From the IMG/VR virus record IMGVR_UViG_2675903481_000014: a stretch of 5,049 nucleotides of DNA; one strand, written 5' to 3'. The stretch is from a virus. Lineage: Duplodnaviria; Heunggongvirae; Uroviricota; Caudoviricetes. This document shows, piece by piece, positions 1-4,705 of this stretch. The notes below the pieces were generated by a model. That model saw nothing but the letters and a program-made list of their open reading frames with translations. It was not told the origin of the DNA and did no database searches. Every line of letters starts with the position of its first letter. Position 1 is the first letter of the stretch. Position numbers and translations under genes: made by a program.

Positions 1-515
1 GAACGTTCTGCCGCTGTTGCTGCGTTTTGTGCGGCTGTTTTTGAAGAAGCTGCCGCTTTCGCGCTGTTACCTGCATTCGTCTCTGATGTTTTCGCCGCAT
101 TCCTGGACGATGCCGCTGCTGTTTCTGATTTCTTTGCTGCCGCTGCGCTCTGAGAGGCGGCTTCAGCGTTGCGTGCCACCTCTTCCACCATCTTTTCAAA
201 ACGATACAGTGCCTCCGGACGAACATCATCTTCTGTTGCAGCGCCCAGAAAATCATTCAATGTCCCCGGCTTAGAATCCTCATACACGGTGATGGCCCCG
301 GCATGTGAAGGCGGAAAACCTTCAACCAGCAGGATAACGCTGTACTGGCCATACTCGACATCCATGCTGTAACGTCCGGCTTCATCCGGATTTTCTGAGG
401 CCACCGTGTTCACCACAACCGTGGTGCTGTTACGTTTTGCTTTGAGCTGAATGGTGCAGTTCTGTATCGGTTTTCCTGCACCGTCTTTCAGCACGCCTGA
501 AATCTGTACTGCCAT
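1..515 (-). CDS. stf: Side tail fiber protein, N-terminal 171 codons (gene continues beyond window start)
   Basis: Absent from the ORF track because no stop occurs inside the window. Manual minus-strand translation from ATG (515-513) is open to position 3: MAVQISGVLKDGAGKPIQNCTIQLKAKRNSTTVVVNTVASENPDEAGRYSMDVEYGQYSVILLVEGFPPSHAGAITVYEDSKPGTLNDFLGAATEDDVRPEALYRFEKMVEEVARNAEAASQSAAAAKKSETAAASSRNAAKTSETNAGNSAKAAASSKTAAQNAATAAER. GGAG Shine-Dalgarno (complement of 521-524) lies 5 nt upstream of the ATG. The N-terminus followed by an Ala/Ser/Thr-rich low-complexity stretch matches what I recall of lambda-type Stf N-termini (memory, not a database hit). Confidence 0.8.
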   Translation of the reverse strand, partial: MAVQISGVLKDGAGKPIQNCTIQLKAKRNSTTVVVNTVASENPDEAGRYSMDVEYGQYSVILLVEGFPPSHAGAITVYEDSKPGTLNDFLGAATEDDVRPEALYRFEKMVEEVARNAEAASQSAAAAKKSETAAASSRNAAKTSETNAGNSAKAAASSKTAAQNAATAAER

Positions 516-526
516 ATTCACTCCAC

Positions 527-554
527 AAATAAAAAAGGCGCCATTTCTGGCGCC
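527..554 (-). terminator. Rho-independent terminator downstream of J
   Basis: Minus strand reads GGCGCC-AGAAAT-GGCGCC followed by TTTTTTATTT: a 6-bp all-GC stem (549-554 / 537-542), 6-nt loop (543-548) and T6 tract (complement of 531-536). It sits 19 nt after the J stop codon (576-574) and 15 nt before the stf-like start codon. Confidence 0.6.
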
Positions 555-573
555 CGTATCTGGGTTATAAAAT

Positions 574-3500
574 TCAACTGATACTGATACCGGCTGTAGA
601 TTTCTTCATCACAACAACAAGAAGGTCGCTGATACTGGTCGTTGGCGTCCAGTTATTAGCACCATATGAAGAAACATTGAAAGTCAGGGTGACATGGCCG
701 TGTCCGGCAGGCATATCAATGACTGATGAAAATACCCTGCTGACATCCGTCGCGGGTTGCTGAAAGATTTCCTGTCCGTTCTTCAGTACCTGCAGCTTAC
801 AGGTTGAATACCAGTATGACTGTTGGTTGTTGCTGTTGAAGTTTTCATGCTTACCCCCACGAAACAGAACGGGGGGGACTACTATCTGACGGTCAAAAGC
901 CTGGTCATCGTACACAGTGACCGTTATTGTACCGCTGGCATAACTGCCATTTCTCGGAAAGGCTTTTCCCACCGTTTTGACAATATCACCTTCAATCTGG
1001 TTAGCTGACAGTTTTCCCAGAATCCGACAGTTCTGATTAATCGTGACGTTGTTGAGCGTCCCGGAGTTCGCGTTCACGTTACCGCTGATATCCGCATTTT
1101 TCGCAGAAAGTCGACCATCAGGTGTCAGTGAAAACGTTGGGGGATTGCCACCGCTGGTAATGGTGGGAGCCGTCAGATATTTCAGGAACACTTCGTTCAT
1201 GAATATCTGATCGCCCTGCCCAACAAACATCGGCTTTGTGTTGCCATTCGCAGGATTAATCATCGCAATCCTGTCCGCCGCCAGCAGCACCTGACTCTGC
1301 ATACCGTCAGGAGTATTCTCAACACCGGCACCAATACCCGCGATATAAAGGCGTCCGTCCTGCATCTGCTGCAGCTTCACAGCCCACATGCTGTTCAGGT
1401 TATTATTTGTATCAACCTGAACCTTCTGTATCTGCTGGATCGCTGCACTCTGGTCTTCCAGTTTCTTATTGACGGTCTGCGTGATTTCATTGCTGACACC
1501 CGTAATGGACGTCCTGATTTCAGCCAGGTCAGGCGCAAGCTGACCGTTATCAATCTGCGTCCACAACTCCTGAGCCAGATGGGTTTTCCCTATCTCTCCT
1601 TTGAAAAAATTCAGATAGCCGGATGCATCATCACTCGGCTGGCCAACAGCCTCCACAAATGCCGATTTGCCAACGGTGTTCACACTGCGGATGTAAAAAT
1701 AATAATCATGGCCCGGTTTGATATTGATACTGGCGGCTATCCAGTACAGCGCCGTGCCAAGATAGCGTGCTGTGGTTTCAACCTGCCTGATATCCGCAAT
1801 CCGCTTTTCCGAGAACCAGAACTCAAACTGTACCGTCGGATCATAAACCGCAAGATGCGGCGTGGCGGTTATCTGAAAATACCCCGGTGTCAGCTCAATC
1901 TGCGACGGCGCTGCCGGTGCGGCAATCCGGAACGATACCGATGCCGGATCGCCCTGCTGCCCCCACGCATTTACCGCCCGGACTGTCAGCCTGTAGTTCC
2001 CCAGCGCCAGTTGCCTGAAGCGGTATGTGGTTTCCGTCGTCCGGGCCGTGCTGACCAGCCGCTCACTGCCGTCATCCGCTGCCACGGTCAGGCGAAGCAT
2101 AAAGCTCACCCCCTTCACCACCTTCGGCGTGTCCCAGCGCGCCAGCACCTGATATTCCCCGCTGTCTGCGGTGACTTCGGCAGTCAGGTGCTGCACCGCT
2201 GGCGGCGTGACACCATTCACCGTGCCGCTCTGGTCGCCGTCAAAGTGCGCCCCGTTATCCACGATGGCCTCTTTTTCCGGTACATGCTGCACGGCAGTGA
2301 TGGCATACGTGCCGTCATCGTTCTCACGGATACTCACACAGCGGAACAGGCGCTGGCGCAACGTTGGCAACTTCAGCCCCCACACGCTGTATTCTGCAAC
2401 GCCGTCAGGAACACGGCTCACTTTTACCTTCACGCCGTCGGTGACGGACTGGACCTCCACGCTGACCGGATTCCCCTGTCCGTCAGCCAGGCTTATCAGC
2501 GTGGTGCCGGAGGATGGCAGCGTGATTTCACGGTCGAGCGTCAGTGTCCGCGTCTGGTTGTTCACCGCCAGCACGCGCCCGCCGATGCTGATCCCCGCAT
2601 AGTCATCATCACAGATTTCAATGACATCGCCCGGTACATGGCGAAGCCCTTCTGCACCCACGCTGAAGTCCACGGTCTGCGTTTCCAGCAGCTCCGTTTT
2701 AATCAGCCACAGCCCGGCGCGGTGTGCCTGCCCCCGGCTGGTACAGCCAAAGGCATCCATCTTCGTGACGTTACGACCGTAACGGGCAATGGCCTGCGTG
2801 TCCTCCACAAGCTCTGTCGCCGTCTCCCAGCCGTTATCCGGGTCAATCCAGTTCACCTCAACGGCATTATGGCGGTCTTTCAGGGCGCTGAAGCTGTAGC
2901 GGAACGGCGCGCCATCATCCGGCATCACCACATTACTGCGGTTATAGGTCCACACCTTATCCGACGGTCGGTCCTGCACGAATGTCAGCGTCTGCCCGTT
3001 CCATACCGGCATACAGCGCATCGCCGAGCAAAAATCACTGAGCACATCCCACGCCTTGCGCTGTGTGGTCAGGTACGCATTACAGGTGATGCGCGGCTCC
3101 GTGCCGCCAAAGCCGTCCGGCACTGACTGGTCGCAATTCTGGCCGATGACATACAGCGCCCATTTATCCACATCTGCCGCACCAAGACGTTTCCCCATGC
3201 CGTAGCGCGGATGGGTCAGCATATCCCACAGACACCAGGCCATGTTGTTGCTGTATGCTGGCTTAAACGTTCCGTCCCAGATACCGCTNNNNNNNNNNCT
3301 CCGAGTCCACCTGTACGCCGACCAGTGCCGTGTTCGGGTAGCACTGTTTCACATCGATGATTTCGGTGTATGACGACCAGAGCGTTTTGTTCTGCAACTG
3401 GTCTGTGGTGCTGTCCGGCGTCATCCTGCGCATCCGGATATTAAACGGGCGCGGCGGCAGGTTATCCACCACCACCGAGGCCAGATACTGCGACGTGGTT

Positions 3501-3973
3501 TTGCCCTTAATGGTGATGTCTTTTTCCGTCACCCAGCCACCGTTACGTTGAATCTGAACCAGCAGGCGGACTTCCGATGGATTCCTGTCCCCCTTTGAGG
3601 TGGTTTCCACCAGTGCCTGCACGCCGAAAGTAAAACGCAGACGGTCAATGTTTGCCGACGTGATGGTCCGGGTGATCGGCGTGTCATATTTCACTTCTGT
3701 ACCGAGCACCGTCTCGGAGCCGGAGGATTCAAATCCCTCCGGCGGAGTCTGCTCCTGCTCACCGGCCCGGAACACCACCGTGACGCCGAATATATTGGTA
3801 TTCCCCTCACTGTCCAGCACCGGCGTACTGTTCAGCAGCACGCTTTTTAATCCATCCACCGGACCTTCAACCGGCCCTTCGCTGATGGCGTCTATCACGC
3901 TCAGCATCTGGGATGATTTCAGGTTGTCCTTCGCTTCGCGCGGGGTATGCCCCTTACTGCTGCCTTTACCCAT
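574..3973 (-). CDS. J: Tail tip host-specificity protein J (central tail fiber), with an internal 10-N gap
   Basis: Two track ORFs belong to one gene. ORF 3263..3973 begins [34 protein letters not shown], the recognisable N-terminus of lambda J. ORF 574..3243 is the remainder: its frame stays open upstream of the internal Met at 3243 right up to the N-run (codons 3244-3288 read [15 protein letters not shown] before MAWCLW). Resolved codons: 225 (3973-3299) + 904 (3288-577) + stop TGA (576-574). GGAG (complement of 3983-3986) lies 9 nt upstream of ATG 3973-3971. With 10 N the two flanks are one frame apart, so the true missing length must be a multiple of 3. The total span is consistent with a protein of roughly 1130 aa, the size of lambda J as I recall it. 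Confidence 0.93.
3289..3298. other. Run of 10 ambiguous bases (assembly gap or masking placeholder) inside J
   Basis: Literal nnnnnnnnnn at 3289-3298. J-like reading frame is intact on both flanks but offset by one, indicating the placeholder length does not equal the true sequence length. Confidence 0.95.
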
Positions 3974-4033: not shown

Positions 4034-4705
4034 TCAGCGACCAATCACCACAACCTGACCACCATCCCCTTCGTCTGCCGTGCTGATCTCCTGAGAAACC
4101 ACGCGTGACCCCACGCGCATTTCACCGTACAGAACCGGCAGAACATTGCCCTGGGCAACCATGTTATCCAGTGAGGAGAAATAGGTGTTCTGTTTGCCGT
4201 TATCCGTTGTCTGTGTACGGGGAGTTCTGGCTTTCGGTGCCAGCATCTGCGCCACACCACCGAGCACCATACTGGCACCGAGAGAAAACAGGATGCCGGT
4301 CATACCACCGGCCCCAATGGCTGCCCCCCATGCTGCAAGGGTGGCTCCGGCGGTAAAGAATGATCCGGCAATGGCGGCAGCCCCCAGGACAATCTGGAAT
4401 ACGCCACCTGACTTGGCCCCGGCGACTCTGGGAACAATATGAATCACAGCGCCATCAGGCAGAGTCTCATGTAACTGCGCCGTTAACCCGGACGTGCTGA
4501 CGTCCCGCCCGGCAATCCGTACCTGATACCAGCCGTCGCTCAGTTTCTGACGAAACACCGGGAGCTGTGTGGCCAGTGCGCGGATGGCTTCAGCCCCCGT
4601 TTTCACACGAAGGTCGATGCGGCGGCCAAATCGTTGTAAATCCCCGTAAAGGCAGATGCGCGCCATGCCCGGTGACGCCAGAGGGAGTGTGTGCGTCGCT
4701 GCCAT
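4034..4705 (-). CDS. I: Tail assembly protein I
   Basis: Track ORF 4034..4705, 223 aa, ATG at 4705-4703, stop TGA at 4036-4034. Sequence MAATHTLPLASPGMARICLYGDLQRFGRRIDLRVKTGAEAIRALATQLP... matches lambda I in length (223 aa) and sequence as I recall it. The N-terminal ~90 aa is the ubiquitin-like domain described for this family, followed by a Gly/Ala-rich hydrophobic segment. The start lies 103 nt inside the 3' end of K, in a different frame. Confidence 0.92.
   Translation of the reverse strand: MAATHTLPLASPGMARICLYGDLQRFGRRIDLRVKTGAEAIRALATQLPVFRQKLSDGWYQVRIAGRDVSTSGLTAQLHETLPDGAVIHIVPRVAGAKSGGVFQIVLGAAAIAGSFFTAGATLAAWGAAIGAGGMTGILFSLGASMVLGGVAQMLAPKARTPRTQTTDNGKQNTYFSSLDNMVAQGNVLPVLYGEMRVGSRVVSQEISTADEGDGGQVVVIGR

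Follow-up and report, generated by a model that had tools for sequence, protein, structure and literature searches.

The distal part of the tail tip gene J in the 5,049-nt stretch of viral DNA analysed here (the window) is, by its sequence, an allele of the phage 21 type that includes a shaft longer by 28 residues. With a probability of roughly 0.8, positions 574 to ~1641 represent the phage 21-type distal J module, for which the receptor on Escherichia coli K-12 is LamB despite ~50% divergence of the receptor-binding domain (RBD). The step made in the preliminary description from a diverged C-terminus to a different receptor is thus unsupported, because the same distal J is carried by phage 21, which uses LamB only on K-12 (as found with a stock having the substitution E1071K).

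Source phage and gene order

In megablast searches, the window showed 100% identity across all 5049 nt to phage ev017 (LR597643 / NC_049948, genus Jouyvirus), on the biology of which nothing relevant was found in the literature, and 99.5% nucleotide identity over its whole length to the classical lambdoid phage 21 (OL657228); the 5049 nt of the window correspond to 5132 nt in the two phage records. The DNA of positions 574–1500 is 100% identical to both phages. Phage 21 differs from the window by at least one substitution in J, an L-to-P change in an FNIII domain (residue ~685), and by none in 574–1500. Accordingly, the last 178 residues of J are 100% identical to those of phage 21, and from residue 806 onwards the translated J proteins of ev017 (gp20) and phage 21 (CPT_21_21) do not differ.

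Coherent long reading frames are found on the minus strand only, in the order of the C-terminal part of K (NlpC/P60), I, J, and the 5′ part of stf. Pfam models assign the neighbours as K (NlpC/P60), I (Lambda_tail_I), and stf (phage_tail_N), with J (positions 574–3973, minus strand; tip attachment or central tail fibre protein, 1160 residues in the source phage and broken by a run of N in the window) lying between I and stf. Beyond the stop codon of J at 574–576 lies an intrinsic terminator hairpin (536–555, minus strand, read from 555 to 536), for which the phage 21 record likewise has a terminator annotation, and directly thereafter the start codon of stf (515–513), of which the N-terminal 171 residues of the side tail fibre protein are encoded (3–515, minus strand; PF08400, E = 3.8e-70, in agreement with the phage annotations). 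The annotations of ev017 and phage 21 show the matching order K–I–J–terminator–stf without lom; a lom/ail-type gene is thus absent between J and stf here, whereas it is present in lambda, 434, and PhiR70_1. A plus-strand open reading frame of 515 residues (1579–3126) was considered as a gene but discarded, since it runs antisense to J and an even longer stop-free stretch lies antisense to lambda J; it is regarded as a composition artefact.

Domain organization of J

The complete gpJ series of Pfam domains was detected in J (FNIII-A_GpJ, Phage-tail_3, Ig_J, Ig_J_second, Phage_Tail_Tip, and Ig_GpJ_C), with PF24801, PF13550, PF24421, PF24489, PF09327, and PF12421 all scoring above the curated cut-offs. 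Ig_J_second extends to about residue 818, Phage_Tail_Tip covers residues 872–1000, and Ig_GpJ_C residues 1038–1160; residues 819–871 matched no Pfam model. As judged from the gene order, this Pfam series, end-to-end homology, and the RBD fold, J is assigned as a lambda-type tip attachment protein (central tail fibre), which probably forms a homotrimeric fibre at the tail tip; others have earlier built a trimer model of phage 21 J (phi21 evolution papers).

The distal part of lambda gpJ consists of an α-helical shaft (residues 809–861), a β-sheet prism (central straight fibre), and an Ig-like RBD, of which four bottom loops go into the lumen of LamB (PMC11101478). Correspondingly, J of the window can be divided into a lambda-like part of residues 1–805 (1642–3973, minus strand) with the hub domains and two FNIII/Ig domains, an α-helical shaft of residues 806–889 (1390–1641, minus strand) aligned to lambda residues 809–861, a β-prism of residues 890–1015 (1012–1389, minus strand) overlapping the Phage_Tail_Tip match, and a C-terminal Ig-like RBD of residues 1016–1160 (577–1011, minus strand), which falls to Ig_GpJ_C and is 100% identical to the phage 21 allele. 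The shaft contains 28 extra residues (approximately 836–863; 1468–1551, minus strand; gap placement approximate), which are absent from lambda and 434 and common to PhiR70_1. The hydrophobic power of the shaft peaks near a period of 3.6 residues, not the 3.5 of heptad periodicity, and the 28 extra residues make up 'four extra heptads' by arithmetic alone.

A structure model of the last 160 residues, obtained with AlphaFold2 in single-sequence mode, was all-β and of low confidence (mean pLDDT, 56; pTM, 0.57), and was used for matching at the fold level only. The top four Foldseek matches of this low-confidence model were 9wca, 9wcb, 8xck, and 8xcj, with TM scores of about 0.5; these A8 and lambda fibres agree with the much stronger sequence evidence on RBD homology. 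When the last 356 residues of J were compared with solved structures by phmmer, lambda gpJ was matched at E = 1e-99 to 4e-101, and the stronger match was to A8 gpJ 713 (9WCA/9WCB), at E = 3e-150; the fibre entries matched were 8iyk, 8xcj, and 9wca.

Divergence from lambda J and the mosaic junction

Full-length J of ev017 aligned with lambda J (NP_040600, from NC_001416) with 962 identities over 1164 positions (83%; 1964 bits, BLASTP), which are unevenly spread along the protein. In a global alignment, residues 1–805, comprising the hub and FNIII domains, are 97.0% identical to lambda, as had been suspected for the N-terminal and central regions. Identity is 41% over the aligned positions of the shaft (806–889), to which the 28-residue extra segment is added, 71% in the β-prism fibre (890–1015), and 48.6% in the RBD (1016–1160). 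The distal C-terminus is hence homologous to lambda and strongly diverged from it, as the preliminary description had it; over the last 150 residues the identity is 48.3%, to be compared with the value of >95% that the same description had named as speaking against its claim.

At the DNA level, 60-nt windows compared with lambda contain 52–59 identical positions down to about position 1669, followed by 46/60 and then 36/60, and past this point the identity is about 50–80% to the stop codon, except for two windows spanning the 28-codon insertion. Together with the amino acid alignment, the fall from 58/60 to 46/60 and 36/60 places a mosaic junction with lambda at J residues ~797–816 (1609–1668, minus strand), and the sharp drop at ~1641–1669 supports the mosaic exchange that had been proposed for distal J. 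By the alignment and the domain limits of lambda (PMC11101478), the junction falls roughly where the second Ig/FNIII domain gives way to the helical shaft. Distal J is thus a mosaic module joined near residue 806 to the lambda-like part by a sharp recombination junction, and the whole unit of shaft, prism, and RBD is a different allele from that of lambda. While the divergence noted before stands, its limit at position 1500 does not, since the diverged block starts ~140 nt upstream, at residue ~806 and window position ~1641; positions 574–1500 encode J residues 853–1160 only, and the peptide beginning with GQPSDD, quoted for that interval, begins at 1644.

Relationship to the A8 and Stx1a-phage RBD

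The nearest solved RBD is that of A8 gpJ 713, which is 82% identical to the RBD of the window without insertions or deletions and has the same last 29 residues. Unlike lambda gpJ713, it was solved on OmpC G17 of EDL933, not on LamB: entry 9WCB holds an OmpC chain under the title 'Open state of A8 gpJ 713 central tail fiber with OmpC G17 from E. coli EDL933'. No usable paper on 'A8' was found, and its partner is known here from the contents and titles of the PDB entries. In the A8 construct, which is a chimera, shaft and prism are those of lambda; its RBD occurs naturally as an allele of Stx1a-converting phages, of 2H10, Chlobot, and PhiR70_1, and of others.

Natural PhiR70_1 J is 90% identical, gap-free, to the distal module of the window, the identity being 97% in shaft and prism, 77% in J residues 1006–1131, and 100% in the last 29 residues. 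All 29 substitutions that separate the window from the PhiR70_1/A8 allele lie inside residues 1006–1131, which marks out a second, finer exchange zone inside the RBD. At 82% identity and with these 29 substitutions, the RBD of the window is not the same allele as that in PDB entry 9WCB. As this nearest solved RBD is bound to OmpC of EDL933, the RBD lineage spans the use of both LamB and OmpC.

Receptor of the phage 21-type allele

LamB, also the receptor of lambda, is the native and only receptor of phage 21 on E. coli K-12 (Borin et al. 2023; Virus Evol 2024). The lytic phi21 ancestor did not lyse the Keio ΔlamB strain and was scored 'L' only among LamB, OmpC, and OmpF, the receptor tests having been made in K-12 BW25113 only (Borin et al. 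2023; Virus Evol 2024). Use of OmpC and OmpF by phage 21 arises by mutation only: I1025T alone in J leads to OmpC use, and later J mutations on top of it to OmpF use (Borin et al. 2023; Virus Evol 2024). In the window, the codon of Ile1025, in the motif EGDIVKT, is at 982–984 (minus strand), so that, from this literature, I1025T alone separates the allele from an additional use of OmpC. In the accessible literature, we found no classical paper showing LamB use by wild-type phage 21.

The phi21 stock that was tested carried G18903A in J relative to GenBank (Borin et al. 2023; Virus Evol 2024). This change maps to J codon 1071 (844–846 in the window, minus strand), GAA to AAA, and gives E1071K in the laboratory stock, whereas Glu1071 is shared by the window, GenBank phage 21, ev017, and the A8 allele. 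The allele of the window is therefore one RBD residue (Glu1071 versus Lys) away from the receptor-tested phi21 stock, and we infer that this difference is without effect on the receptor.

The mechanism of attachment is most likely like that of lambda. By homology to the lambda and A8 fibres, the distal loops of the trimeric RBD would enter a trimeric outer-membrane porin through its extracellular mouth; this binding would spread the RBDs, twist the prism, and flip the helical shaft, after which the tail tip would open for DNA ejection.

Alternative interpretations

The distal divergence would be meaningless if J were a decaying pseudogene of a defective prophage, a reading to which the raw window lends itself in that J appears there as two pieces, open reading frames of 225 and 889 residues, in different frames. 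However, the frame break coincides with a run of nine N (3290–3298) that stands for about 92 nt, by which J residues 226–256 are lost; because the run masks these ~92 nt, the break is artificial. Moreover, J is a single intact open reading frame of 1160 codons in both ev017 and phage 21, which are plaque-forming or virion-purified phages. A pseudogene or a frameshift in J was rejected on these grounds, decay being scarcely conceivable here, and the '225-residue N-terminal' piece described before is lambda-like as stated but is a separate piece only as an artefact of the N run. The tips of lambdoid J proteins are generally known to vary with the receptor, FhuA being that of N15, phi80, and HK022, and the diverged C-terminus could on this account target such an unrelated receptor class or another outer-membrane protein, with nothing specific in the window pointing that way. 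The RBD is homologous to the porin-binding RBDs of lambda, 434, and A8, but has no detectable similarity to the N15 tip (gp21), which gave a weak match in the shaft region only (E = 0.009), and the match to HK97 stops at shaft and prism, before the RBD. Since phage 21 failed to infect triple mutants in LamB, OmpC, and OmpF even after evolution (Borin et al. 2023; Virus Evol 2024), a receptor of an unrelated class is very improbable, and there is no evidence for one outside the LamB/OmpC/OmpF porin group.

Within this group, OmpC might be the main receptor of the natural Glu1071 allele, or an alternative one, on natural E. coli hosts such as those with an EDL933-like OmpC, and the LamB-only result would then be an effect of K-12 and/or of E1071K. 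Such a role of OmpC is suggested by the deposition of the closest solved RBD, A8 gpJ 713, in the open state with OmpC G17 of EDL933, by the mere 29 substitutions, without insertions or deletions, between the two RBDs, and by the unlocking of K-12 OmpC through I1025T, outside the RBD core, which suggests a latent affinity for OmpC; the tested stock, in addition, has Lys1071, and the window, GenBank phage 21, and the A8 allele have Glu1071. Against this, the published phage 21 ancestor was LamB-only among LamB, OmpC, and OmpF on K-12, its authors call LamB native, and there is no evidence that E1071K changes the tropism. We therefore regard OmpC as a rather unlikely main or alternative receptor and retain LamB as that of the phage 21-type module on K-12. 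A related possibility, also unlikely, is that the choice between LamB and OmpC within one RBD lineage is set by at most 29 substitutions and that the Glu1071 allele, present in ev017, in wild-type phage 21, and in hundreds of prophages of E. coli, may have a strain-dependent dual tropism, with LamB used on K-12 and OmpC variants, for example of the EDL933 type, on wild hosts. If such a dual tropism were true, 'LamB-only' would in part be an artefact produced by the K-12 host and by the E1071K change in the laboratory stock, and recognition of LamB would have persisted, or arisen anew, over an RBD divergence of 50% from lambda through different contact loops.

Prevalence and implications

At ≥99% identity, the last 537 nt of J occur in 268 records of complete E. 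coli genomes, among them that of the type strain ATCC 11775, and 814 further records match at 95–99%. The allele is thus common, and the gene is already known, annotated in GenBank, and studied experimentally, with nothing new in this respect here. At an RBD identity of 49%, lambda and phage 21 share the use of LamB, whereas at 82% phage 21 and the A8/Stx1a allele use LamB and OmpC, respectively, so that distance from lambda is a poor predictor of the receptor in the J family. Caution is accordingly advisable, as a change of receptor cannot be predicted from C-terminal divergence of a lambdoid J alone; receptor calls for E. coli prophages with the phage 21-type allele should be based on experimental anchors at the level of the allele, not on distance from lambda. 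The pair of phage 21 and A8, with 29 substitutions and no insertions or deletions, could be a compact system for mapping porin specificity.

Comparison with other lambdoid tail tips

Phage 434 (h434 host range) uses OmpC as its receptor according to the classical literature. The preliminary description had proposed a comparison with the J proteins of 434, N15, HK97, and 21, among others; over the distal module, phage 21 gave a 100% match and 434 was at 49%, and HK97 and N15 had no match in the RBD. J of 434 (OL657226) has a homologous distal module with 49% identity over the last 356 residues and an RBD of the porin-binding type, but differs in its short, lambda-like shaft and in the lengths of its RBD loops. 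The match to HK97 J covers the shaft and prism only (29% identity; E = 9e-15) and ends before the RBD. Lambda gpJ (NP_040600; PDB entries 8XCJ/8XCK, gpJ713 with and without LamB) belongs to the same family and has the same domain order and a homologous RBD fold, and its receptor on K-12 is LamB, known from the literature, as is that of phage 21; K10 and TP1 are likewise counted among the LamB-dependent phages. Relative to lambda, J of the window has 1160 residues instead of 1132, and the RBD loops contain a 4-residue deletion and a 5-residue insertion. The two phages also part in experimental evolution, in which lambda goes towards OmpF, whereas phage 21 goes first towards OmpC.

Receptor-binding domain and helical shaft of J

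The solved structure nearest to the receptor-binding domain (RBD; window 577–1011, minus strand) of the tip attachment protein J is that of A8 gpJ 713 (PDB entry IDs, 9WCA/9WCB; sequence identity, 82%; indels, 0). The A8 RBD was solved on OmpC G17 from E. coli EDL933, whereas the RBD of the window is a LamB-using allele, the use of LamB being known from laboratory phi21 tested on E. coli K-12. All of the 29 differences between the two RBDs are located within J 1006–1131, and the long loop of residues 1061–1081 and the last 29 residues of J are identical. The papers on receptor evolution worked with a laboratory phi21 that has the mutation G18903A, corresponding to the substitution E1071K within the RBD. 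At the codon concerned (window 844–846; position 7287 of L002), Glu is encoded in the window as well as in GenBank phage 21 and in the A8 allele, in contrast to Lys in the laboratory stock.

On the N-terminal side of the RBD, the helical shaft of J contains 28 residues (window 1468–1551, minus strand) that are absent from the J proteins of both lambda and 434, and, judged from these additional residues in the sequence, the shaft is presumably longer than theirs. Numerically, 28 residues equal four heptads.

Reading frame of J and its relatives in E. coli genomes

J seems to be divided between two frames, as a piece of 225 aa and an ORF of 889 aa, because a run of 9 N at window 3290–3298 stands in for ~92 nt of the source phage, with residues 226–256 being lost. 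The run is a masking or assembly artefact, and a frameshift in J was therefore rejected. A 515-aa ORF antisense to J (window 1579–3126, plus strand) was also rejected as a gene; since lambda J has a stop-free antisense stretch of 705 aa at the equivalent position, this ORF is regarded as an artefact of codon composition. Sequences related to the J tip were found in 3582 of the 5426 complete E. coli genomes, at a median of 2 and a maximum of 13 places per genome, the multiple matches being due to the several lambdoid prophages carried by a strain, especially in O157:H7.

Genes flanking J

Upstream of J, the I frame (ATG at 4705) and the end of K (stop at ~4603) overlap by ~100 nt (window 4603–4705), as likewise seen in lambda; I is annotated as 573 nt in ev017, with a later start, versus 672 nt in phage 21. 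The J–stf interval (window 516–573) contains only a terminator hairpin (555–536, minus strand) and a short spacer, with no gene for a lom/ail-type outer-membrane protein, whereas such a gene occupies this position in lambda, 434, and PhiR70_1. Beyond the interval comes the N-terminus of the side tail fibre protein Stf (PF08400; window 3–515, minus strand), and after it a low-complexity stretch rich in Ala and Ser. In both ev017 and phage 21, stf forms an intact ORF of 686 codons, whereas stf is frameshifted in laboratory lambda.
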